Shown here: piece by piece, positions 2,049 through 28,938 of the stretch | Position numbering within the stretch: the first letter of the stretch is position 1 | How the letters are laid out: every line of letters starts with the position of its first letter | Assembly (NCBI RefSeq): GCF_000300075.1 | Contig: NC_018677.1 | Span: 270,001 to 302,000, forward strand | Source: Candidatus Saccharimonadota bacterium | Lineage (GTDB): Bacteria; Pseudomonadota; Gammaproteobacteria; Johnevansiales; Johnevansiaceae | DNA length: 32,000 bases | Direction of reading: 5' to 3' | The notes under the pieces: model-generated | What the model saw: the letters and a program-made list of their open reading frames with translations, nothing else | What the model was told of the DNA's origin: nothing | Databases searched by the model: none | Program-made: the position numbers and the translations under genes

Positions 2049-2281
2049 ACTTCAAATACTTTCAAAATAACTATAAACTATATATTTGTCATAACTTTAT
2101 TTATAACAACAAAACCTATAATTTATTTTTACAAGTTTAAAAACTAACAATATATATAAAAACTTTTACAAGTTCCTTTTTTTTTTATAAAATTTAACAA
2201 AACAAGTGTATTTTATTATTTGTTATTTGTTCTGATTTAGTAATTTTGGTTATCTTGTTCTGTTCTTTTTTTTTGATGTAG

Positions 2282-2352
2282 GTTTTTATTGAATTGTTGT
2301 TATTAAAAATATATGTTTTTAGCATTATGTTTTTATTGAATTGTTGTTATTT
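2282..2352. repeat. Direct repeat: two copies of gtttttattgaattgttgttatt, period about 47 nt
   Basis: Copies read at 2282-2305 and 2329-2352. Confidence 0.75.
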
Positions 2353-3042
2353 TTAACACTAATGTGTTTTTTTTATTTGAAAACCTAACCTTGCTTACTA
2401 TATGTTGTGTTCTTTCTTATCTCTCTATTTAACTCTTATTTATTTTTATTTGTTTTATATATAATATAACATCTTCTTTATTTTTATTTTTTTTTGATCT
2501 TTTATTTTACTCTTTTTTGTACTTAGAGGATACGTTATTAATACTTGTGTTATGTTTTCTAACTATTTTATGTTTTATCTTTATCTTTATGTTGTATAAT
2601 TAAAGTTATATAAAATTGTTAAGTTGTTTGATAGTATTCATTAGAGTTTATGCTTTTTTAGTATTTTGTTATCCGAAGTTGATGGCAATCGGCCTTATTA
2701 TTTGCTTAATTGTTGTTTATTGTGGTTTTAATAACTGGTGTATATTCAGATTTTGTATTTAAGAACAGTATAAAATTGTTTAGATGTATGGTATATGATT
2801 AATTTAAAATTGTTATTTCTTTCTGTATTATTTTGGTTAAAAAAATGTTTGCTTCGTTAAAGTTTTGTTGCTGCTTTAGATCTTGATATTTGCTTTATGG
2901 TGGATTGTTTTGTGGTTTATGTTTTTAAAAGATGTAGATGCTTAGTTATTGTTATTTGTGTTTTTTGTTTACTGTATATATTGTTAGAATTTGTATCAGT
3001 GTTGTTTGTATTAGTGATTTGTTGTTGTTATAACGAAAACAG

Positions 3043-3155
3043 TTATATAAGATAAAAAAATAGTTGTATTGGTGTATAATTGTTGTAAAGTTAATTACCG
3101 TCATATTATATAAGATAAAAAAATGTTGTATTGGTGTGTAATTGTTGTAAAGTTA
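3043..3155. repeat. Direct repeat of about 50 nt, two copies, period 63 nt
   Basis: ttatataagataaaaaaatagttgtattggtgtataattgttgtaaagtta at 3043-3093, against ttatataagataaaaaaatgttgtattggtgtgtaattgttgtaaagtta at 3106-3155. Confidence 0.85.
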
Positions 3156-3185
3156 TATCAAAAAGAGTAAAGAATTAGATTAATG

Positions 3186-3403
3186 GTTTGTTGTTTGTTG
3201 TTTGTTAAGGAAGTAAAAGAAATAGATTTGTGGTTTGTGGTTTGTGGTTTGTGGTTTGTTGTTTGTTGTTTGTTAGTTGTTAGTTGTTAGTTGTTAGTTG
3301 TTAAGGAAGTAAAAATGGAATTTGTGGTTTGTGGTTTGTGGTTTGTTCTTTGTTGTTTGTTGTTTGTTAGTTGTTAGTTGTTAGTTGTTAAGGAAGTAAA
3401 AGG
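3186..3403. repeat. Higher-order tandem repeat of three units (about 96 and 87 nt). Each unit is (GTGGTTT)n-(GTTGTTT)n-(GTTAGTT)n ending in GTTAAGGAAGTAAAA
   Basis: The terminator motif ttaaggaagtaaaa occurs at 3205, 3301 and 3388. The heptamer runs between them were read directly. There is only 1 C in nt 3181-3420. Confidence 0.9.
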
Positions 3404-3996
3404 ATAAAAAAAAAGAAAGGTGTGTAATGTTGTGAGAAAGGTTATTTGATAAAGTATAAAGGTTATGACAAAGGCTGTTGTGAGAGGTTTGTTAAAAAAA
3501 GAAAAGTTAGGTTATAAGGACGGACGGATATAGAATATGAGAAAAATTGTTTTGTTAAGCAAATAGGTTATAAGGTATTATACATGTTGTGAGATACTGG
3601 TTGTTAACAAAAAAAAAAAAGTACGTCATATGTTGAATTAGGGTGTTAAGTAAGAATTTGTTATTAATTTATTAATTAAACGTGTTGTAAGAAATATTAA
3701 ATAAAGTTGTGATTTGTGTTGTAAGATTTTGATTTTATCTTTATCTTTATTGTTATTGTTATTGTTAAGCGGATTTTATGAAATGTTGTTAAGCTATTAA
3801 GCTGAATTGTTGTAAATTATTATGTGGTATGATATTGTTAAAGTTTTTATTTTTAGCTGTTAGTTTCTTTGTGGGTAAGTATTTTGTTGTTAACTATTAG
3901 TTTTGTTTGTGTTTAATTTAGTTGTTAAATAGTAGTTTTTTTGTGCATTTGAAGTTTGTTGGTAAGTTGTGTGTATTGTTTGAAGTTAAATGTAAA

Positions 3997-4080
3997 TGGA
4001 GAGAGAGGGATTCGAACCCACGATAGTATAACTATACTCCTTTAGCAAAGGAGCGCCTTAAACCACTCGGCCACCTCTCC
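3997..4080 (-). tRNA. tRNA-Ser (anticodon GCU), class II with a long variable arm
   Basis: The reverse complement is GGAGAGGTGGCCGAGTGGTTTAAGGCGCTCCTTTGCTAAAGGAG...GGTTCGAATCCCTCTCTCTCCA. The anticodon loop is TTGCTAA between the CTCCT/AGGAG stem. The acceptor stem pairs GGAGAGG with TCTCTCC. It lies 11 nt downstream of the lysC stop. Confidence 0.9.
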
Positions 4081-4091
4081 TTATATAAAAT

Positions 4092-5345
4092 CTATTGAAC
4101 AATGTTATTTAGATTAAAAGTAGTATGCAAGACATGAAGTGCTAAATCCATATAGTCGTCAAAAACAAATATAGATAGTTTAAGCTCTGATGTAGATAAA
4201 AAAAGAATAATTATGCCGTGTTTTTCTAAGGTATACACAACGTTATGCAAAATACATTTATGAGAGTAGATCCCAACTCCAACAATAGAAATTATAACAG
4301 ATTTATTATCGGCTAGAATGTGTCCACAAAAGTAAATACAAATATATTTTTGTATTGTGTGAAATAATAAATTATAATCAGATTTAGATATAGTAAAAGT
4401 TATAATAAATTGAGTGGTTAAGTTTTTTATATTTTGAATACAAATATCTATTTTGTGATCTGAAAAACAAATCAAAATGTTATAGCAAACATAAGGAAAT
4501 ACTTCACAAGAAACAATTACAGTAATGTTTTCAATATTACAATTATATGTAACTCCTGAAATTAACGGGTTTTCCATTTTCTTTTCTAAAAATGACCTCT
4601 TTTGAATTAGTAATGTACCTGGATTATTATCAAAAATTGATAAAAGTCTAACAGGCATATTAGATTTAACTGCAAACTCAACAGAGCGTATTTGTAATAC
4701 TTTCGATCCTAAACTAGACAATTCTAACATATCTTCTACAGTAATATATGAAATTAAACTTGAGTTATTACATAGTCTAGGGTCTGTACTGTACACACCA
4801 GATACATCTGTATAAATTTGACATTCATCTGCGTTAATAGCAGTAGATATAGCCACAGCGGTAGTATCTGAACCGCCTCTTCCTAATGTTGTTATATTAC
4901 CATACTTATCTATTCCTTGAAATCCTGCAACTACCACAACAATATTATTATTTATATCCTTATTTATTACTGAAGTATCTATATGTTGTATACGAGCTTT
5001 TGTATACACACTATCGGTAAAGATCGATAATTGTGCTCCTGTATAAGATTTTGATTTTACCCCAACAAGATTTAAAGCAATTGATAATAACGACATAGTT
5101 ACTTGTTCACCTGTTGATAGCAAAACATCTAACTCTCGATGATTATATATATCGTTTATTGTTTTTTTTTTATACATTAGTTTTGCTAAACATAACAATC
5201 TATTTGTTTCTCCGCTCATTGCTGAGACTACAACAATAATTTTCTGTTGTTTTTTATAAAAGAAACTTATTTGTTTTGCAATGTTTTTTATATTTTTAAT
5301 TGATCCCACTGAAGTACCTCCAAACTTTTGTACAATAATTCCCAT
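4092..5345 (-). CDS. lysC: Aspartate kinase
   Basis: 417-aa ORF. The N-terminus IVQKFGGTSVGS is the aspartokinase signature, GRGGSDTTA is present, and the C-terminal region is ACT-like. The start ATG overlaps the stop of the upstream alaS fragment as TAATG. Confidence 0.92.
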   Translation of the reverse strand: MGIIVQKFGGTSVGSIKNIKNIAKQISFFYKKQQKIIVVVSAMSGETNRLLCLAKLMYKKKTINDIYNHRELDVLLSTGEQVTMSLLSIALNLVGVKSKSYTGAQLSIFTDSVYTKARIQHIDTSVINKDINNNIVVVVAGFQGIDKYGNITTLGRGGSDTTAVAISTAINADECQIYTDVSGVYSTDPRLCNNSSLISYITVEDMLELSSLGSKVLQIRSVEFAVKSNMPVRLLSIFDNNPGTLLIQKRSFLEKKMENPLISGVTYNCNIENITVIVSCEVFPYVCYNILICFSDHKIDICIQNIKNLTTQFIITFTISKSDYNLLFHTIQKYICIYFCGHILADNKSVIISIVGVGIYSHKCILHNVVYTLEKHGIIILFLSTSELKLSIFVFDDYMDLALHVLHTTFNLNNIVQ

Positions 5346-6646
5346 TATAAACCTCTTTTAAATAAAAAAGTTTTTATATTTGTTTTTAATGTTTTAGTAT
5401 ATAACATATTAAAATTGTTTATACTAGTCTTAAGATATGAAACATTTGTAGTTGCATTATAAAAAATTGTTTTATTTGTTTGTAAAACTTGTTTAAAAAA
5501 AACACTATATGGTCTAAATTTTAAACAGTCATTCGTTATTTTAATAAATACGTTTATATTATGTTTATTTAAAACATAAACAATTATTATACTTTTATTT
5601 ACTAATTTGTTTACGATGCTATGCAGTATTACAAACAAATCTTTTTTGTACTTACTTTTTATTTTGTATATTAAAAATTTATAACCAAAAAAATAAAACA
5701 TTTTACTAAGTAATTTGTTTATTTGTTTTTGTATAGTTATTTGTTTAAACAAGTTAAACTCATCAAGAAGCACTTTGTTTTTATTTTTAAGATGTTTAAT
5801 ATTTTTTTTAACATTATTTAAACATAGATTGCTAGCAAACGATAAATCTTTTAGAGTTAATTTGTTTTTTAAAATATAACGAACAGCATTTTTATTAGTT
5901 ACTGCCTCAATACGACGTATACCTTTAGATACACATTGTTCTGACATAATACAAAAACAACCAATATTTTTTGTGGTTTTGATGTGAGTTCCATTACATA
6001 CGTCTATGGAATAACCTCCCTCTTTTCCAATAACAACTACATTTTTATGTTTTATATTTTTTTTTTGTTTAGATAAAAGTTTAATTAAAATTATATGTTG
6101 TTTGGCTATTGCACGATTTATTAACAGTTCAATTATAAATAAAATTTTGTTTGTCAACGGTTTATAAGATTTATATTCAAATATTATTTTATTTTGATTA
6201 ATAAAAAATCCTTTTTTTATTAGTTTTTTTTTAGCCACTCTTTGTATTGTTACATTTAATAAATGTATAGCTGAATGAGCAACACTTATATTATAACGAA
6301 TAATTTTGTCTATATAACAATTAACGTGTGTTGTATTTGAAAAATAACCTTTCAATAAAGTTCCTACATGAAAAAACAAAGAATTATGTTTAATCACGTT
6401 ATATACTTTAAATTTTCCTAATTTATTATAAATATATCCTACGTCACTAATGACTTGCCCACCTTTTTCAAAAATAAAAGATGATATTTTTAAAATAATT
6501 GTTCCTTGTGTATTTTCGCTTATAAAGTTTATGTTTTTACCTTCTTTATTTAAGATTTTTTGTATTTTTGTTTTATAAAAATATATATTACTAAAAAAAA
6601 AGTTTTGAGTTATTATACTGTCCTTTATTGTATATAAATAAAACGA
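5345..6646 (-). CDS. alaS: Alanine--tRNA ligase, C-terminal part only (beta-barrel, editing and C-Ala regions). The aminoacylation domain is absent, so this is a truncated gene or possible pseudogene
   Basis: The ORF track calls 5345..6397 with a GTG start. My hand translation shows the frame stays open upstream to a TAA at 6647-6649. The extension still matches AlaRS: FIFEKGGQVISDVG against FYAESGGQVGDKG. The editing-site zinc motifs HSAIH (HxxxH) and CNGTH (CxxxH) and GIRRIEAVT are conserved. There is no ATG, GTG or TTG codon in the extension, and nothing resembling the N-terminal ~450 aa is present upstream. Confidence 0.8.
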   Translation of the reverse strand, partial: SFYLYTIKDSIITQNFFFSNIYFYKTKIQKILNKEGKNINFISENTQGTIILKISSFIFEKGGQVISDVGYIYNKLGKFKVYNVIKHNSLFFHVGTLLKGYFSNTTHVNCYIDKIIRYNISVAHSAIHLLNVTIQRVAKKKLIKKGFFINQNKIIFEYKSYKPLTNKILFIIELLINRAIAKQHIILIKLLSKQKKNIKHKNVVVIGKEGGYSIDVCNGTHIKTTKNIGCFCIMSEQCVSKGIRRIEAVTNKNAVRYILKNKLTLKDLSFASNLCLNNVKKNIKHLKNKNKVLLDEFNLFKQITIQKQINKLLSKMFYFFGYKFLIYKIKSKYKKDLFVILHSIVNKLVNKSIIIVYVLNKHNINVFIKITNDCLKFRPYSVFFKQVLQTNKTIFYNATTNVSYLKTSINNFNMLYTKTLKTNIKTFLFKRGL

Positions 6647-6989
6647 TTAAGTTGTAATAATTCTTTTATCTCTTGCATATTATAAAACAATGTTTACTTT
6701 TAAAACACTTAATTTATACTTTCTTTTAACTTTTCGATGTTTATTATTTACTATCAAAATACAACTTTATTTTTTTTTATAACAAACCTTTTTTGCAACT
6801 TAAATTGTGTAGATCTTTTTTTTTAAAGCAATACAAAAAATTTTTTTTATTTCTATTAATAATAGCTAGTATATACTAACTTTACCGTTTTCACCCTGTT
6901 ATATACTAACGTTCTTCTTCAAACTGCTTTACTACTATATAATAAACTATATATTTCAGCTAAGAGCTAAACTTTTTTATCTTTTAGCA

Positions 6990-7115
6990 TATAACAAGTT
7001 TTATTTTGTTTGAATAATATATTAACTTTCTTCATTTTTTCTATAACAACTTTTTTATTTTGTTTGAATAATACATTAACTATCTTTATATTTTCTATAA
7101 CAACTTTTCTAAAAC
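6990..7115. repeat. Tandem repeat, period about 53 nt, about 2.4 copies
   Basis: The unit tataacaa(g/c)tttt..attttgtttgaataata(t/c)attaact..ttttc was read at 6990, 7042 and 7096. Confidence 0.8.
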
Positions 7116-7640
7116 CTGATTAACTATTTTAATCTTTTTATACAACGTATTTTTTTTAACAACTAATTAATGTATTTATTATTACATTAAACAATTTACA
7201 TTTTTCCTTTAACGCTAATTGAAAACATTTAACAACAACTAGCTTTTAATTTAACCATAAACTTTTTTAAACCACCTAAGACTAAGAACCTAACTGTTTT
7301 TTATCTACAACGCATAACCTAAACAACCACAATACACCTACTGATTACAACTTTACACCTCTTATAATACAACATTGAAATATAGTAACTAAATACATAA
7401 AAAAATTACTGAATTATATTAAATTAATATAACAAAAAATTGATTTTACGCTAATAATAACACCAAAACAATACATAAAACACAAAAGTAAAGTATTGCT
7501 AACATCAAACAACTATTAACAAACACACCTTTTGCTTTTATTTTTATATATGTTTCTTACTATATACTAAATTGATTACAACAAACACACATATTTAGGT
7601 TGTTGTTTTATACAACTTTCATAATTTTTACTAAACTGTT

Positions 7641-7736
7641 AACAACAACTAACAACTAACAACTAACCACTAAACACTAACCACTAACCACTAACCACTA
7701 ACCAACAACCAACAACCAACAACCAACAACCAACAC
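7641..7736. repeat. Compound heptanucleotide microsatellite in C-strand orientation: (CAACTAA)3-(CCACTAA)5-(CCAACAA)5
   Basis: Read directly. There is no G in nt 7641-7740. The reverse complement (TTAGTTG, TTAGTGG and TTGTTGG units) is related to the array at 3186-3403. Confidence 0.9.
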
Positions 7737-7878
7737 AAAACTGATAACAACAAACGTATAAAAAATAACAAAACAAAAGTTTGTAAAAAAATAAACATAC
7801 AGCTAATAAAAACAAAAAAGATATATTCTAAAACATACTACTTTTGTAGTAAACATAAAAAATTAAGTTTAAATTGTG

Positions 7879-10470
7879 TTATAAGCTAACAACTATATTT
7901 ATTACTTTTGCATGTACGAAAATAAGTGTATGGATTTCTTTACAGTTCAGATAACCTTTTATAGATATAGAAGATAAAATAGTACTTGCAAACGTTTTTG
8001 TATGATAATTTAAAGGCAATTTAATTTCTTTACGTATTTTTCCATTAATCTGTGCTAACACAGTAAACAACTGACCTAACATGCAATGTTTATTATAACT
8101 AGGCCATTTTGCATCTATTACAGCATATGAGAACCCCAAAACTTTCCATAAAACATGGGTTATGTGAGGAACAATAGGGGCTAAAATTAGAATTATTGAT
8201 TTCAAAGCTTCCCTTGTTACTGCCAAGCCGATAATACTACTGTCTATATCTATAAAGTGTAATACTAAGTTAGTTAATTTCATAACAGTTGATATTACAG
8301 TATTAAAGACATGTCTTCCAATCATATCTGAAGTAGCTTTTTTTATAGTTTTCTGAAGTTGTCTATATAAATTAAATTGGTCTGGCCTTAATGATGAGAG
8401 TTTTATTATGGTATGCTCTGAGCCTGAGATATATATATATGTATGAACTATATTCCATAACCGCTTAATAAACCTGCTGGAACCAATGATGCCAGATTCA
8501 GACCATATAAGTACTTGTTCCGTTGGTGCAGAAAACATAACAAACAAACGTAGAGTATCAGCACCAAATCTATTAATTAGAACATTAGGATCAATGCCGT
8601 TGTTTTTAGATTTAGACATTTTTTCAATACCGTTTCTTATAACAATTCCACCATCTCTTTTAACCGTTGGTATTATATTTCCGTTTTTTTTATCTTTTAA
8701 CAAACAAACATCTAAAGGATTAAACCACTCTTTTATGCCAAAACTTTCTCTATAATATGTATAAGTTAAAACCATACCTTGAGTAATTAATTTTTTGAAA
8801 GGTTCATCACAATCAACCAATCCAAAGTCGCGCATTAATTTATGAAAAAAACGAGCATACATTAAATGCAAAATTGCATGTTCTATACCGCCTATATACA
8901 TATCTACTGGTAACCAATAATTTACCCTTGCATCAAGAATTGAGTTGTTATTATCAGTACAACAAAACCGTGCGTAATACCAAGATGATTCTATAAAAGT
9001 ATCAAAAGTTTCTGTGTCCCGCACCCATCCATTTCCTAACACGTAAAAAGACGGTATTTTTTTTAAATTAAATTTACTGTTCAAACAGCCATGTTTTGGT
9101 AAATATACAGGTATTTCTTCATCAGTAAGGGGCGTTTGTTTACCTGTTATACCGTATTTTACTGGTATAGGAGTACCCCAATATCTTTGCCTAGAAATGC
9201 CCCAATCACGTAACTTTAGTTTTTGTTTTACAACACCACTCTTATATTGTTTTATAAAATAAAAGATGTAATCAAAAGCTTCAAAACAAGTTATGTTGTT
9301 AAAAATACCTGAATTGATAATAAATCCAAAATCAGTATATGCATTTTTTGAAATATCAGGTACTTTACCATTTATATCAGAAACAACAGTCTTAAATGGC
9401 AATCCATAAGTGTTTGCAAAATCCCAATCTCTGTGACTGTGAGCCGGAACACCCATACTTGCCGTAGCACCATATTCAAAATATCTAAAACTAGAAACAT
9501 ATAAAGGCAAAATTTCATTTGTTATTGGATGTAAAACATTGTATCCAACATATAATCCAAGTTCTTTATTCTTTAATGTTGCCAATGAACATTTACCACA
9601 AAAAGTAAAAGTATTACAAAGTTTCTTTATTTGATAATTATATTGCGCAGCTAATTCAACTAAATGATGATCAGGTGCTAAAAGTATATAAGTAACGCCA
9701 AATAAAGTGTCTGGTCGTTGTGTAAATACTTTTAAGTAAGAGTAACAATTAGGTACAGAACCAATAACTTTAAATGACACTTCTATTCCTTTATATTTAC
9801 CAATCCAATTAACTTGCATTTTTTTTACAGACTCTGGCCAATCAATATTTGCTAAACATCTCAAAAGTTCATAAGCGTAATCTGTAATTTTTAAAAACCA
9901 ACTAGGAATTTTTCTGTGTTCTATTTTTGCACCAGACCGCCAACCAATACCGTTAATTACTTGCTCATTAGCTAAAATCGTCTTTTCTAGAGGATCCCAA
10001 TTAATAATTGCGTTATTTTTATAAATAACGCCGTGCTCGATCAATTTAATAAAAAACCATTGTTCCCAGCGATAAAAATCTATTTTACAAGTTGTTATTT
10101 TCCTATCCCAATTATAAGAAAATCCTAAGCTTTTAAGTTGATTATACATATAGTAAATGTTTGAATTAGTCCAGTCAGTAGGAGAAACAATATTTTTTTT
10201 TGCAGCGTTTTCTGCAGGCATACCAAAGGCGTCCCACCCTATAGGGTTTAATACATTTTTACCTAGCATACGTTGTGAACGAGAAATAACATCACCTATT
10301 GTGTAGTTACGAACGTGTCCTATATGTAGATTGCCGCTAGGATATGGAAACATACATAAACAATAAAACTTTTCCTTATTAGGTATTTCTACTATTTCAA
10401 AACAATTGTGATTGTACCAAAAATTTTGAGCTTCTAGTTCAATTTTTTTATAAGAAAAAGGATACATCAT
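7879..10470 (-). CDS. leuS: Leucine--tRNA ligase
   Basis: 863-aa ORF with the class I motifs PYPSGNLHIGH (HIGH) and KMSKSKNN (KMSKS). Length is close to that of bacterial LeuRS. Confidence 0.96.
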   Translation of the reverse strand: MMYPFSYKKIELEAQNFWYNHNCFEIVEIPNKEKFYCLCMFPYPSGNLHIGHVRNYTIGDVISRSQRMLGKNVLNPIGWDAFGMPAENAAKKNIVSPTDWTNSNIYYMYNQLKSLGFSYNWDRKITTCKIDFYRWEQWFFIKLIEHGVIYKNNAIINWDPLEKTILANEQVINGIGWRSGAKIEHRKIPSWFLKITDYAYELLRCLANIDWPESVKKMQVNWIGKYKGIEVSFKVIGSVPNCYSYLKVFTQRPDTLFGVTYILLAPDHHLVELAAQYNYQIKKLCNTFTFCGKCSLATLKNKELGLYVGYNVLHPITNEILPLYVSSFRYFEYGATASMGVPAHSHRDWDFANTYGLPFKTVVSDINGKVPDISKNAYTDFGFIINSGIFNNITCFEAFDYIFYFIKQYKSGVVKQKLKLRDWGISRQRYWGTPIPVKYGITGKQTPLTDEEIPVYLPKHGCLNSKFNLKKIPSFYVLGNGWVRDTETFDTFIESSWYYARFCCTDNNNSILDARVNYWLPVDMYIGGIEHAILHLMYARFFHKLMRDFGLVDCDEPFKKLITQGMVLTYTYYRESFGIKEWFNPLDVCLLKDKKNGNIIPTVKRDGGIVIRNGIEKMSKSKNNGIDPNVLINRFGADTLRLFVMFSAPTEQVLIWSESGIIGSSRFIKRLWNIVHTYIYISGSEHTIIKLSSLRPDQFNLYRQLQKTIKKATSDMIGRHVFNTVISTVMKLTNLVLHFIDIDSSIIGLAVTREALKSIILILAPIVPHITHVLWKVLGFSYAVIDAKWPSYNKHCMLGQLFTVLAQINGKIRKEIKLPLNYHTKTFASTILSSISIKGYLNCKEIHTLIFVHAKVINIVVSL

Positions 10471-10943
10471 AAATGTATATTTGTTTTGTTTAAATTTGAA
10501 TATTCAATATTTTCCATGTTATCAGCATCAGTTACATTCTTATGATTATACCCGATTAAGTGTAATAAACCATGAACTATTATATGAGCACAATGAGCAA
10601 TAAATGCTTTATTCTTTTTAAATGATTCATATAAAAGTAAAGTGGGAGTTATGACTAACTCACCTAATAATTGTATGTTAATTCTTTGCGAAAGAGCTTC
10701 ATATGAAAAAGAAATTATATTTGTTAAAGAATTAAAACCACGATAATAACTATTTAAGCCAATAATTTCCTTATATTCAACAAAACGAATATTAAAAACA
10801 ATATCTTTATAATGTTTATATTTTGGCTTTAAAAACGAACAAAACCAAGAACTTAGTAATGACTCATTTGGCACGATTTTTTTAATTGTATTATTTTTTA
10901 TAAACTGCATATGTACGTATACACATTTTATTTTCTTTTTCAT
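10467..10943 (-). CDS. ybeY: rRNA maturation endoribonuclease YbeY
   Basis: 158-aa ORF with the metal-binding motif HGLLHLIGYNH (HxxxHxxxxxH). It overlaps the leuS start by 4 nt (ATGA). The true start may be the internal Met (MQFIKN). Confidence 0.85.
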   Translation of the reverse strand: MKKKIKCVYVHMQFIKNNTIKKIVPNESLLSSWFCSFLKPKYKHYKDIVFNIRFVEYKEIIGLNSYYRGFNSLTNIISFSYEALSQRINIQLLGELVITPTLLLYESFKKNKAFIAHCAHIIVHGLLHLIGYNHKNVTDADNMENIEYSNLNKTNIHL

Positions 10944-11801
10944 TTTTTTACTTTTTGCTGTTAGTTTATTTGTGTTTGAGCTTATATTTGTTTTTTTTGT
11001 TCTTATTTCTTTTTTTTTTACTTTATTATTATTTTTATGTGTTTTTTATCTGTTATATTTTGTGTTTATTTTTATGTAGTTTAAAACAATTTATTTATCT
11101 TTTTTATGAATTATGTTTTCTGTGCAATCTATATATGTTTTGTTGTGTGCTTTATGTTTTTTTTCTATATTTCTTACTCTTATGCTTTTGTTGTTATTTT
11201 CTTTATTCCTTAGAGTTTTATTTCTTATCTGTTAGATGCTTTTTTTATGTTGTTAGAGTTTTGTTGCTTAAAACTGTTATTTTTTTGTTATTTTGAGGTT
11301 AGTTATTTGATATTAGATGTTTATTTCTTTGTTATTTAGATTTTGTTATATTTTGTTAAGAGTTATATAGTTTTAGATTATATAGTGTATGTTATATGTT
11401 ATTATTCAAAGTTTGTTATATGATAGCTGTTAGAATCTGATATTTGTTATTTAAATTAGCGGTTTGTTTAAAAGGAAATTCTCTTTAAGTTGTATTCTTT
11501 TATTATATTTGAATTAAGATTTTAGATGTTTATTCCTTCTATTTTTTTGTCTCTTTTAGTTTTTTATAGTTTTTGTTGTATTAATTTATGTTTTTAAGTA
11601 TATTTAGAGTTTGTAGGTTTATTTATTAGAGGTTAGAAGTTAGATTTTTGTTTGTTAGAGGTTGTTTATTTGTTAGAGTTTAGTTTATTTTAGCGGTTAT
11701 TTAGTAGAGGTTAGAGTTTTGGGTTTTAGAAGTTGTAGGTTAGCTTAAGTTGTTTGTTTATTAAAAGTGTTGTTGTTTTTGAATATAGTTCTTTCTTTAA
11801 A

Positions 11802-11841
11802 TTTATAGAGGGTTAAATGTTTACTTTATAGAGGGTTAAAT
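11802..11841. repeat. Direct repeat tttatagagggttaaat, two copies, period 23 nt
   Basis: Copies read at 11802-11818 and 11825-11841. Confidence 0.75.
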
Positions 11842-13972
11842 TGTTAGTTATTATTTGTTACTTGTTATTTGTCTCTTAAAATCATTTCTTTGCTTTATTT
11901 ATTTGTAGGTTTAAAAGGCAAAGTAAAGTGTAATTCTGTTTAGACTACTTGATAATGTATTAAAACTTAAAAAGTTGTGTCTAATTATGTTGTTATGTAG
12001 ATGGTTCAGCTGTTACGTTGTTAAATTTTAGATGTTTTGTCTAAATGCTATTATGTAAACTCTGATTGTGTTGTTATGTAGTTGTTCAGAAGTTGTTATA
12101 AAAAGGTGTATGTAGTTATGTATTGTATAATACAAAATATTATTATATTTACTTACTATTAATTTAAAATTGTTTGCTGTTGTGAACTTAGTGTCGTATA
12201 TTATTATTTAATTGAATTAGAATTAGTTATATAAAAATGAGTAATTAAGTAGGAATAGTGAGCTGTATTGTTAATTATATATTATGAATAAATGTTTTGT
12301 TGTTACAAGAAAACGAAATGTTAAAATTAGATGTATGTTTAATTGAAGTTATGTAGTTGTGAAATAAAAAAGTAGTGTAAATATGTTAAGCTATTATGAT
12401 GTTTAGATTGTATGAAGTTAAAACGTGTAGTAATAGGTTATGTGCTTATGAATTAAAGTTGTTATGTATTGTGTATATAGGTAAGTTGTAGTTAGTAGGA
12501 GTTGCAATGGATGCATGGTGTAAGTGAATTAATTTATATGATTTTTGTATAAAGTTTGTTGCTGTATAAAATAAAAAGTAAACAATAGGGGTATAATAAT
12601 GTAATATGCTTAATGTAGTAATATCGGTGTTTGTTAATATGCTTGTTTATTGTTTTGGTTAAGTTTATATTAATTGATGGTTGTTTAATATGTTGAATAA
12701 AATAGTTATTGTTAATATATAGTATTAATGTTTGATAAAAAAAGTTATTAGAAAAATGTGTTTATTTGTTAGTGTATTAAGTTTATTTATGTTATTGGTT
12801 AAAAGTATAAAAAGGTATTAAAATCATTTAAATTAGCTGTGTTGTTCGGTTTCTTTTATAGTTTGTTTTCTTTAAAATTAGAGGTTTGTTATTCTTTTTC
12901 TATTAATTGTGTATTAAAAACTTATACGTTATTAGTTAATGCAAATTTGTACTTTCTTTTTTTTTTTTTATATTAATTTAGCTTTCTAGTCTTTAAATGT
13001 TTTTAAGAAAGTTTGTTAACTGTTGTATTCTTTAAAAAGATAGTTTATATGTTGTTTTATTATTACATTATTTATCAGTTTTGTATTAGTTATATGTAAA
13101 ATATGTGCTTTATGTTTGTTTAAAGGATTGAAAATTTTTTTTGTTTATACATTTGTTATTTGTTGATGTTATCTTTTTTTATTTTGCTTTAGGTACTTTT
13201 CTGTTATGTGTTAAGTTTTTATTTTTAAACTTTTATGTGTATTTTTGATTAGTTTGTATGAGCTGTGTTATATGAACTTAATATAAGCTGTAAATTTATA
13301 AAGTTGTACTTTAAAGGATGGTTTGTATGTTGGTAAAACAAGAAAACGAAATATATAACAGAAGAGAGAAGATTGTATAAAAGAAAAATGTAATCTGTAT
13401 ATTTGTGTTCAGTTGTTAATGGTATGTGATAGGTAAGTATGAAATAATATGATATATCAAAGAGAGTTAAAGGAAAAAAGTAATATGTGGTAGTGGTTTT
13501 TATAAGGTTTATGGTCGTTGTTTGTTAAATGTGTTTATGTTCAATAAAAAGCTATATTAGCTTTAGTAAAAGTGCTGTGTATTAAAGTTAGAAAAAACTA
13601 AGGATGTCATACTAAGTAAAACAAAGACTAACAATATGTTAATGTTAGGAATTAGATGAAATTATGTTAGCTATTATTGTTTGTTAGAGATTTGTAGGTA
13701 AATTTTGTTTTGGTATATTGCTATTAAGTTCATTTTTGTATCATTCTTTTTAATGTTTGTTATTCATTTTTTATGATATTTGAAAACTGTTATATGAACA
13801 AAACAAGTACTTAAAATGTTATTGTGTTATAAAAAAAAGACTAAGAATCGGATGGTAAAAGGAAGAAGGTGTTATGTATGTTTAATGGTAAACTGTTTAA
13901 ACTAGTAAATTTTAGAAAAAAATAATAAAATAAGTAATTTAAATAAGGTAAAAAAAACAAGAAGGAAGAATC

Positions 13973-27464: not shown

Positions 27465-27803
27465 TTATCTTTTTTTTATCAACCTTTTTAATTCCCCAGT
27501 TTTATACATTTCAAAGATAATGTCACTGCCTCCTATTAACTTGGAATTTATCCAAAGTTGAGGAAATGTTGGCCATTTAGACCATTTCGGTAATTCATGT
27601 CTAATGTGTACACTTTCTAATACATTTATATATTTAAAACGGTTTAAATATTTTTTTATAAACTTAACAGCTTGTGCAGAATATCCACATTGGGGTAAGT
27701 TCGGTGTTCCTTTCATATATAATATTATTTTGTTTTTTTTTATTTGGTTTTTTATTATTTCTATTGTTTTATTTTTCATCGTTTGTTTTGTGGAGCTTAC
27801 CAC
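27465..27803 (-). CDS. grxD: Monothiol glutaredoxin (Grx4 family)
   Basis: LYMKGTPNLPQCGYS (CGFS-type site) and WPTFPQLWINSKLIGGSDI match E. coli GrxD. The ORF track starts at GTG 27803. The ATG at 27777-27779 (MKNKTIEIIKNQ) aligns better with the GrxD N-terminus. Confidence 0.9.
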   Translation of the reverse strand: MVSSTKQTMKNKTIEIIKNQIKKNKIILYMKGTPNLPQCGYSAQAVKFIKKYLNRFKYINVLESVHIRHELPKWSKWPTFPQLWINSKLIGGSDIIFEMYKTGELKRLIKKR

Positions 27804-27899
27804 ATGACATCCTACATCCTACACTGCCAGTATTGAGCTTAAGCCCCCTATTTTGGTTTTTTTCTATACGTTCTTATTATATAATAAACTTATTGCTTT

Positions 27900-27970
27900 G
27901 GCTGGATGGCAGAATGGTTATGCAGCGGATTGCAAATCCGTTAAAATCGGTTCAATTCCGATTCCAGCCT
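27900..27970 (+). tRNA. tRNA-Cys (anticodon GCA)
   Basis: The acceptor stem pairs GGCTGGA with TCCAGCC. The anticodon stem-loop is GCGGA-TTGCAAA-TCCGT. The T-arm is ATCGG-TTCAATT-CCGAT. The discriminator is U, as expected for tRNA-Cys. Confidence 0.9.
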
Positions 27971-28015
27971 CTTAAAATCTTAAACAAACTAAACATTAAA
28001 ACATTGAAATCTTTA

Positions 28016-28099
28016 GCCCGAATGGCGAAAATGGTATACGCAGGGGACTTAAAATCCCCCGTCTTATAAGGCATGCTGGTTCAAGTCCGGCTTCGGGCA
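28016..28099 (+). tRNA. tRNA-Leu (anticodon UAA), class II
   Basis: The acceptor stem pairs GCCCGAA with TTCGGGC. The anticodon stem-loop is GGGGA-CTTAAAA-TCCCC. It has a long variable arm (GTCTTATAAGGCAT) and the T-arm GCTGG-TTCAAGT-CCGGC. Confidence 0.9.
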
Positions 28100-28272
28100 A
28101 ATTATATTTTTTTACTTTTTTAAAAATCAAAATCTAAAATAAATAAAACTAATATCTACTAATCTACTATCTAAATACATATTGTTTCATTAGTTCCATA
28201 ATAAGTAACCAATTTTATAGAAACCCTTTATCATAAACCATTACCTCATCAATTCTTTTATTCCATCTTTAT

Positions 28273-28385
28273 AGCAACAACAACACCCTATCTTTATACC
28301 CTTTTTAGCAACAACAACACCCTATCTTTATACCCTTTTTAGCAACAACAACACCCTTTTTAGCTTTTTCTCCAACAACAACAAG
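28273..28385. repeat. 34-nt tandem repeat, about 3 copies, with a 12-nt deletion in the third copy
   Basis: agcaacaacaacaccctatctttataccctttt starts at 28273 and 28307. The copy starting at 28341 lacks tatctttatacc. Confidence 0.9.
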
Positions 28386-28938
28386 CTATATCCTTCTTTG
28401 TTTAGTATGCCTTTTAACATCAAACATCAAACACATAACCTTTTATAATTAACATTTAAACATACAGCCCATCTACACAAATACACTGTATTAACACAAC
28501 CATAACAAAAAGTAAACTATTATCATAGTACGACATATCTTGTACACACAAAACAAAAAGATAACAAAGACAATAAAAACCGTACACACAACAAATAAAG
28601 AAAACAAATAAAATCACAAAAAAAAATACAGCATAATCACAAAAAAAAAAGAGAAAAATACAAAACTTTAAATAGAACTAAATACTAACACAACACATAA
28701 GTTACTTAAGACAAAAAGAAAGTACAAATAAAGGGAAAACAACAACGAAAATAACATCAAAAAGTATTAAACATTTAATCAAAAAATAATACAAATTCAT
28801 ATAAAAATATAACAAAAAAAAAGAAGCGAAAAAGTAGTAGATGTATATTATTAAAGAGTAATAAATACTAAGATTTTATTAGCTATCAGCTTTAAATTAG
28901 TAGAAAACTTTCTGTTTATAAAAACAAAAGGAAATTTT

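Follow-up and report, generated by a model that had tools for sequence, protein, structure and literature searches.

The stretch of 32,000 nucleotides analysed here (the window; contig NC_018677.1, positions 270,001 to 302,000) carries alaXp, a remnant of the alanyl-tRNA synthetase (AlaRS) gene alaS in Candidatus Portiera aleyrodidarum of the Bemisia tabaci lineage (BT), which has been known since 2015. We consider it likely that alaXp is an in-place remnant of alaS at its ancestral locus, with the architecture of a long free-standing AlaX protein (AlaX-L), that it is under selection, and that it is predicted to edit tRNA-Ala in trans, with charging supplied externally and translation starting at AUA. 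Under this scheme the first ~440-450 codons of a gammaproteobacterial alaS, encoding the class II catalytic core and the tRNA-recognition domain, have been deleted. By analogy with AlaRS editing domains and AlaX, the remaining protein, AlaXp, would bind tRNA-Ala and hydrolyse Ser-tRNA-Ala and Gly-tRNA-Ala in trans. The enzyme that alanylates the tRNA would be encoded outside the symbiont genome, an imported host AlaRS being the most plausible source, and alaXp would be transcribed together with lysC.

A first-pass annotation of these letters had described alaS as surviving only in its editing and C-terminal half, as an open frame of about 430 codons beginning near the equivalent of E. coli residue 455. 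It held that such a frame was unlikely to be open by chance in AT-rich DNA, and listed HSAIH, CNGTH and GIRRIEAVT as intact. These observations stand. On the minus strand the frame runs from 6646 to a TAA at 5347..5345 through 433 sense codons with no stop; the remaining five frames contain 18-61 stops each across 5345..6646. The coding strand at alaXp is 45% A and 35% T, with a stop probability per codon of ~0.10. At this local base composition the probability of openness by chance is ~3e-21 for all 433 codons and ~1e-4 for the first 83. All three motifs were located and align with those of E. coli AlaRS, and the frame divides as follows:

5345..6646, minus strand: full open frame of alaXp, the alaS remnant (beta-barrel, editing core, helical linker, C-Ala), 433 sense codons plus TAA
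6305..6583, minus strand: predicted beta-barrel subdomain of the editing domain, frame residues 22-114, placed by Pfam tRNA-synt_2c positions 457-550 and the E. coli alignment
6263..6277, minus strand: HSAIH, first zinc/editing-site motif (HxxxH), aligned to E. coli HSATH
5984..5998, minus strand: CNGTH, second zinc/editing-site motif (CxxxH), within the tRNA_SAD match at 5906..6031, aligned to E. coli CGGTH
5897..5923, minus strand: GIRRIEAVT, conserved strand closing the editing core, aligned to E. coli GVRRIEAVT
5348..5890, minus strand: helical linker and degenerate C-Ala (DHHA1-like) domain, placed by the TIGR00344 alignment to 817/847 and structure matches

The extent of the loss is evident from profile and pairwise alignments. 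The NCBIfam model TIGR00344 (alaS) matches frame residues 22-378 at model positions 457-817 of 847 with 163.9 bits, where the cut-off for the full-length enzyme is 457 bits, and the only Pfam matches are the tail of tRNA-synt_2c (457-550 of 552) and tRNA_SAD (PF07973, E 4.6e-10). With the model match starting at 457, the frame holds no catalytic domain. The BLASTP alignment to E. coli K-12 AlaRS (E 4e-35) runs from frame residue 35, opposite E. coli 476, to residue 373, opposite 821, which places the start of the frame at about E. coli residue 442 and the likely translation start at about 452, close to the earlier estimate. What alaXp lacks is the class II core (motifs 1-3) and tRNA-recognition domain that make up roughly the first 450 residues of AlaRS; what it retains is an editing domain with HxxxH and CxxxH, collinear with AlaRS and in all collinear with E. 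coli residues ~442-876. Since residues 1 to ~440 are missing, AlaXp cannot activate alanine or charge tRNA.

As an independent open reading frame that encodes an editing domain without an aminoacylation domain, and that keeps the zinc/catalytic HxxxH and CxxxH, alaXp has the features of the AlaX class. It shares with the free-standing AlaX proteins (AlaX-S/M/L; P. horikoshii 1v7o/1wnu, 2e1b) their stand-alone state, the same editing fold and both zinc motifs; its predicted N-terminal beta-barrel, seen as sequence homology, would correspond to that of AlaX-M, and with AlaX-L it shares the added C-Ala-like C-terminal domain. However, it is not orthologous to them, having arisen by in-place truncation of the resident alaS, and whereas cells with a classical AlaX also possess a complete AlaRS, the genome with alaXp encodes, by published accounts, none. 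The NCBIfam AlaXM model (NF040865) scores only 46.1 bits against a cut-off of 300, and the best matches are always AlaRS rather than AlaX, both among NCBIfam models and in a profile search of the Protein Data Bank (PDB). On these matches AlaXp descends from AlaS by truncation and falls outside the classical AlaX families.

An AlphaFold2 model of the protein, built from a 16-sequence alignment, is consistent with this domain order. Its mean predicted local distance difference test score (pLDDT) is 66.7, with 75-90 in the editing core and 65-82 in the C-terminal 140 residues. Foldseek against the PDB matched the model to full AlaRS over ~410 columns (9a7x_B, E 5e-25; A. fulgidus 3wqy, E 4e-20) and to free-standing AlaX structures with E of 1e-8 to 1e-12, among them the AlaX-M entries 2e1b and 9iuw and the AlaX-S entry 1v7o (TMt 0.77). 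Isolated C-Ala domains were also matched (3g98, TMt 0.68 over 111 columns; 2zvf; 6nly). The PDB sequence profile search agrees with this result. The C-Ala (DHHA1-like) domain that defines AlaX-L is thus recognised by Foldseek, subject to the Pfam DHHA1 and glycine-motif caveats given below. In the beta-barrel, FEKGGQV of BT pairs with E. coli YAESGGQV; the GGQ-type glycine motif reads EKGGQV in BT and ESCGQ in the remaining Portiera lineages, in a subdomain whose pLDDT is only 24-56. Modelled in this way, AlaXp is a beta-barrel, editing core, helical linker and C-Ala, the predicted architecture of AlaX-L.

We compared the locus with those of other Portiera. The order leuS, spacer, alaXp, lysC is repeated in a second, independent Portiera genome from B. 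tabaci (L007, CP016343) and in assemblies L008 and L009 of a 67%-identical relative, taken from the European Nucleotide Archive (ENA) and Logan. This recurrence excludes an assembly error hiding the 5' half, one of the conditions named as refuting the first-pass annotation. Orthologues without the catalytic domain lie directly upstream of lysC in the Trialeurodes-type locus (TV; L005), in L010 and L011, in the Bemisia-like L008 and in L012, the Logan assembly of run ERR13328196. In TV, alaXp begins 193 bp after a divergently oriented mutS, and the first ~1.3 kb of alaS is gone. The same gene is present on a Singhiella simplex contig (L001), which is cut inside alaXp so that its flanks are not seen. 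A scan of genome contigs returned Portiera AD-CAI (L002), the Singhiella contig and two unrelated bacteria, with A. floccissimus not among them.

In Portiera lineages the order of alaS or alaXp, lysC, tRNA-Ser(GCU) and tRNA-Arg(ACG) mirrors E. coli alaS-csrA-serV-argV, where alaS lies likewise upstream of tRNA-Ser(GCU) and tRNA-Arg(ACG). Because of this correspondence the alaXp locus is, as judged from gene order, the ancestral position of alaS.

The residues that would be needed for editing are those most strictly kept. In an alignment of nine Portiera sequences the four zinc/editing-site ligands (H124, H128, C217 and H221) never vary and KGxRRI hardly does; across 16 sequences, distant AlaRS among them, no change is seen at the C, G and H of CxGxH. 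Ratios of non-synonymous to synonymous substitution rates (dN/dS) were taken from the three pairs with unsaturated dS, and the numbers are rough, with extreme AT bias, dS near saturation in deep pairs and few substitutions in the closest pair. The YN00 values are:

BT-L008: alaXp 0.22, lysC 0.22
TV-L010: alaXp 0.33, lysC 0.18
L010-L011: alaXp 0.50, lysC 0.09

In the editing core alone dN/dS is 0.05-0.30, and the core has the lowest value of three segments in four of five comparisons. The C-terminal segment is the most divergent in TV-L010, TV-L012 and BT-TV (44% against 59% identity in the last of these). By these measures alaXp appears more relaxed than its neighbours yet clearly constrained.

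The Trialeurodes-Bemisia split has been dated to 86-90 Ma (Santos-Garcia et al.). The comparisons show alaXp to have been kept intact, under apparent purifying selection, since before that split, ~90 Ma. Two ways of accounting for the frame had been offered in the first-pass annotation, a very recent truncation or a retained AlaX-like protein in a cell that obtains Ala-tRNA charging another way, and dN/dS across related strains had been proposed as one check. We reject the first, because lineages that separated 86-90 Ma share the truncated gene, dN/dS lies below 1 (0.22-0.50 for alaXp, which disfavours a plain pseudogene) and the window holds no N-terminal relic upstream. The second is supported by the orthologues, the zinc ligands and dN/dS, and is also the published reading.

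Several observations weigh against this interpretation. In the L012 AlaXp (P0007), 39 residues of the editing domain are deleted. Sequence change in alaXp is faster than in the adjacent lysC and leuS, and for L010-L011 the NG86 estimate of dN/dS is 0.96 overall and 1.29 in the C-terminal part, from very few substitutions and by a method that clearly underestimates dS in this AT-rich genome. The N-terminal beta-barrel is modelled at low confidence (pLDDT 24-56), Pfam DHHA1 was not detected in the protein, the C-Ala glycine-rich motif of the AlaRS sequences P0009 and P0010 is replaced in alaXp, and the AlaXM score falls far short of its cut-off. The deacylase activity, its substrate and the real start codon are all points that we infer, and the lack of a separate catalytic half in the rest of the Portiera genome or in that of the host is taken from the literature.

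The start of the gene deserves separate treatment. The first ATG, GTG or TTG in the alaXp frame is the GTG at 6397, and in the 83 open codons upstream of it the only near-cognate candidates are ATA, ATT and ATC. That no canonical start occurs there was already noted in the first-pass annotation, and the same holds for three further lineages. The sites concerned are:

6626..6628, minus strand: ATA, the NCBI PGAP/RefSeq start of a 427-aa product, upstream of the Shine-Dalgarno-like motif
6621..6625, minus strand: AAGGA, Shine-Dalgarno-like, kept in the four lineages without a canonical start although flanking residues are poorly conserved
6611..6616, minus strand: ATA ATA, 4 and 7 nt past AAGGA, the most likely non-canonical initiation site, for a predicted product of ~422-423 aa
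6395..6397, minus strand: GTG, first canonical start, used in older 350-aa annotations, which would delete most of the beta-barrel

In BT, L008, L010 and L011, 71-100 open codons precede the first canonical start, and their amino-acid identity (0.59-0.94) equals that of the editing core (71% versus 67% for BT-L008; 84% versus 84% for TV-L010). As the upstream codons are as conserved as the editing core, the beta-barrel segment appears to be part of the protein. GTG 6397 was rejected as the true start, the 80 codons upstream of it being open and conserved like the editing core in four lineages. The PGAP start at ATA 6628..6626 is less likely, since it lies on the upstream side of AAGGA and the corresponding codon in L008 is ACT.

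AAGGA precedes five of the 13 canonical gene starts in the window, compared with 1.9% of random 22-nt windows, and is the Shine-Dalgarno form used in this genome. More broadly, AGGA, GGAG, GAGG or AAGG lies within 25 nt of 8/13 window gene starts (for example 13973, 16717, 20113, 27451 and 28939) against a background of 10%; Shine-Dalgarno-like motifs are still used despite extreme genome reduction. Given this usage, and given that AUA or AUC stands exactly 7 nt after AAGGA in BT, L008, L010 and L011, BT alaXp is most likely initiated at AUA 6616..6614 or 6613..6611. The TV-type locus and L012 have an ordinary ATG start. A second conserved AAGGA occurs at frame offset 139, followed by ATT ATT, and could be an alternative internal start; it is encoded by conserved (Q/E)-G codons, and coding constraint explains its conservation.

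Among other explanations, the one that fares best is that AlaXp works on tRNA-Ala without editing it, docking it to or handing it over to an imported host AlaRS, or protecting it, through its C-Ala and beta-barrel surfaces. As the symbiont is reported to lack alaS, its tRNA-Ala has to be charged by an enzyme from elsewhere, and the C-terminal linker and C-Ala fold are kept in all lineages. C-Ala is established as a tRNA-binding module, and reportedly, in work by Guo et al. in 2009 (cited in PMC5322561), it bridges aminoacylation and editing. We nevertheless regard this role as unlikely, since the best-conserved residues are HxxxH and CxxxH of the editing site rather than those of C-Ala, and the C-terminal segment, as seen in BT versus TV, is the most divergent part. 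No tRNA-Ala, in which a host AlaRS would need the G3:U70 identity pair, was found in the window or in seven loci.

A second alternative is that the frame is kept open mainly for the benefit of lysC, either through coupled initiation at the overlapping start or because the lysC promoter or Shine-Dalgarno sequence lies in the region. The two elements at this junction are:

4092..5345, minus strand: lysC (aspartokinase; AA_kinase and ACT), whose ATG overlaps the alaXp stop (TAATG, 5347..5343)
5352..5355, minus strand: GAGG, the lysC Shine-Dalgarno sequence, encoded by the last alaXp codons (K-R-G)

The overlap (TAA 5347..5345, ATG 5345..5343) is as the first-pass annotation gave it. The junction is tight in every lineage: the genes overlap by one nucleotide in BT (-1 nt) and are separated by 1-2 nt in TV and L008, by 8 nt in L010, L011 and L012, and by 24 nt in AD-CAI, so that all eight loci fall between -1 and +24. 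A GAGG(A) for lysC lies within or just past the last alaXp codons, with equivalent GAGGA motifs at the L010, L011 and L012 junctions. Co-transcription of alaXp and lysC is plausible on this arrangement, as is translational coupling in BT. A promoter and terminator scan of 3900..7900 is uninformative on transcription units: it gave 29 promoter-like sites where shuffled sequence leads one to expect 32, and it detected no terminator. The relatively high dN/dS, especially in the C-terminal part, would also suit a frame retained for the sake of lysC. Selection for read-through, however, would keep openness and not residues, whereas the zinc ligands and many other positions have been invariant for ~90-130 Myr and the editing core has the lowest dN/dS in most comparisons. 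The overlap itself is not conserved, as the 8-nt and 24-nt gaps demonstrate, and a 1.3-kb leader would be very costly for coupling in a genome under strong deletion bias. We therefore give this explanation somewhat less credence than a non-editing role on tRNA-Ala.

That alaXp is a plain pseudogene, a recently truncated alaS whose frame has yet to decay, is very improbable. The missing canonical start, the faster evolution relative to lysC and leuS, the lost C-Ala glycine-rich motif and the older 'hypothetical protein' annotations would all fit such a gene. Against it stand the sharing of the truncated gene by lineages split ~90 Ma, the negligible probability of 433 open codons, the invariant zinc ligands and the low dN/dS of the editing core, together with an adjoining spacer devoid of any trace of the N-terminal half, which implies ample time for decay. 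On these comparative data the pseudogene explanation appears already refuted. Least probable of all is a split AlaRS with a separate catalytic-half gene elsewhere in the BT Portiera genome, for which the two-ORF arrangement in AD-CAI is a precedent, but against which stand the lack of any similarity to the catalytic domain across the 32 kb of the window and in flanking sequence from five further lineages, the distance of only 193 bp between mutS and alaXp in TV, and the listing of alaS as lost in BT and TV in two independent comparative papers (PMC5322561, PMC7821994). The pattern of residue conservation argues against all of these alternatives except, in part, a non-editing role on tRNA-Ala, and an editing remnant of alaS remains the interpretation that we favour.

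The fate of the catalytic half can be followed at other loci. In the window, tblastn searches that used the N-terminal half from AD-CAI and a further two AlaRS proteins as queries found no AlaRS catalytic relic (best E 0.13-0.5), and the AD-CAI N-terminal half had no tblastn match in L005, L008, L010 or L011. In AD-CAI the fission is seen directly: the N-terminal half occupies L002 8709..9797 (362 aa), alaXp follows at 9806..11272 (488 aa, TTG) in a different reading frame, and lysC comes next. The AD-CAI break is a frameshift, with the N-terminal half ending ...LLDKGMI* at 9797 and the alaXp frame opening at 9785, and ~20 residues usual between LDKG and FKLYDTYG appear to be missing. A protein search with the AD-CAI catalytic half gave a best match of 45% identity and is uninformative, as the query itself was not recovered; Portiera catalytic halves are apparently not in that large protein collection, and the AD-CAI N-terminal half may be absent from it through annotation as a pseudogene.

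Of the loci compared, L012 is closest to AD-CAI (89% amino-acid identity in lysC). It has an intact, ATG-initiated alaXp, upstream of which only catalytic-domain fragments remain (L012:457-702), in different frames: SCQNCIILGGK, VDTGMGL*RIAS (with an in-frame stop), LISEGLLPN and TYGLP. The relic 'LLSNTFVDTGMGL*RIASISNYEIDIF' is 69% identical to AD-CAI (E 8e-10). If the placement of L012 beside AD-CAI holds, this suggests that the catalytic half was lost a second time, independently, in the L012 lineage, and that the editing half was again kept. More tentatively, genome reduction in symbionts may repeatedly lead to loss of the AlaRS charging half with retention of the proofreading half; in Portiera the data suggest two or more such events (one preceding the divergence of Bemisia and Trialeurodes, one in L012), with an imported host AlaRS charging, AlaXp clearing Ser-/Gly-tRNA-Ala, and AUA/AUC initiation in four lineages; this is a possibility to which we would give less than even weight.

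The gene has several public names and lengths. The alaXp protein is identical to WP_320408503.1 (427 aa, 'alanine--tRNA ligase-related protein') of Portiera of Bemisia tabaci and, from GTG 6397, to AFQ24177.1 (350 aa) of Portiera BT, both encoded on a 358,242-bp contig. Annotated lengths are 336, 350, 413 and 427 aa, under the names hypothetical protein, alanyl-tRNA synthetase, alanyl-tRNA editing protein and alanine--tRNA ligase-related protein; the GenBank label of the BT-QVLC protein is 'Alanyl-tRNA editing protein'. According to Santos-Garcia et al. 2015 (Genome Biol Evol 7:873; PMC5322561), alaXp occurs alone in Portiera of Bemisia and Trialeurodes, A. dispersus Portiera shows the alaS fission (alaS + alaXp), A. 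floccissimus Portiera has a full alaS, and alaS loss is placed among the losses common to the TV and BT strains. The alaXp described there is the same gene as that in the window, with nothing essential different. Santos-Garcia et al. 2020 (PMC7821994) extend the loss to Portiera of P. mori and S. simplex. In the published comparisons the genome is listed without alaS, argS, thrS, asnS, metG and trpS, and the 2015 authors propose import of nuclear-encoded proteins in general terms. The available parts of the two papers do not mention segment-wise dN/dS, the L012 lineage with its decayed catalytic relic, or, as a further new detail, the four lineages in which no canonical start is present and AAGGA is conserved ahead of AUA/AUC. 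The phenomenon having been in the literature and in database annotation since 2015, its confirmation adds little; the practical value lies in a better start-site proposal for alaXp and in an extra lineage at an intermediate stage of decay.

The remainder of the window accords with Portiera in its kilobase-long, repeat-rich spacers, its base composition and its genes: it has a G+C content of ~25% and encodes lipA, tRNA-Ser, lysC, alaXp, leuS, ybeY, trpB, trpA, ahpC, a class I synthetase, argD, lepA, groEL and argG. The features that flank alaXp and lysC are:

3997..4080, minus strand: tRNA-Ser(GCU), conserved downstream neighbour of alaS/alaXp-lysC
7879..10470, minus strand: leuS, upstream neighbour in B. 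tabaci-type lineages only; elsewhere mutS, on the opposite strand
6647..7878, no strand: leuS-alaXp non-coding spacer of 1.2 kb with tandem repeats, no detectable AlaRS catalytic relic and a stop fraction of 0.086 per codon

Directly after tRNA-Ser(GCU), most Portiera lineages (L002, L005, L010, L011 and L012) and E. coli have tRNA-Arg(ACG); at the B. tabaci-type loci (the window, L007 and L008) it is not beside tRNA-Ser(GCU), and in that lineage it must have been moved or lost. BT LysC is 67-79% identical to that of the other lineages (L005, L008, L010, L011, L012 and L002) and ends ...HTTFNLNNIVQ, compared with ...KKYIKEEI and close variants elsewhere. The BT lineage is reported to have lost dapB, dapF and lysA (PMC5322561).

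Kilobase gene-free spacers lie at 1-1000, 2200-3990, 6647-7878, 10950-13970 and 27700-28900, with extreme GC/AT skew and many tandem repeats. These include TTTGTGG/TTGTTAG heptamers at 3188-3401, AACAACT repeated 13.6 times at 7644-7735, a 54-bp unit at 6970-7108 and a 34-bp unit of 98% identity at 28267-28357. The ybeY-trpB spacer is ~3 kb in the window compared with only ~55 bp in the 67%-identical relative L008, and this expansion, at least, is therefore specific to the B. tabaci lineage.

Together these data support a model in which an essential aminoacyl-tRNA synthetase activity has disappeared from a genome while the corresponding proofreading and tRNA-binding module has stayed, apparently under selection, for ~90 Myr. 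Such retention supports a need to clear mischarged tRNA-Ala independently of charging. If the repeated loss is real, the system would be a chimeric one, with tRNA-Ala charged by an imported host AlaRS and Ser-/Gly-tRNA-Ala cleared by the symbiont AlaXp. Retention of the module also supports the dependence of Portiera tRNA charging on imported proteins, which is relevant to the transition from symbiont to organelle.

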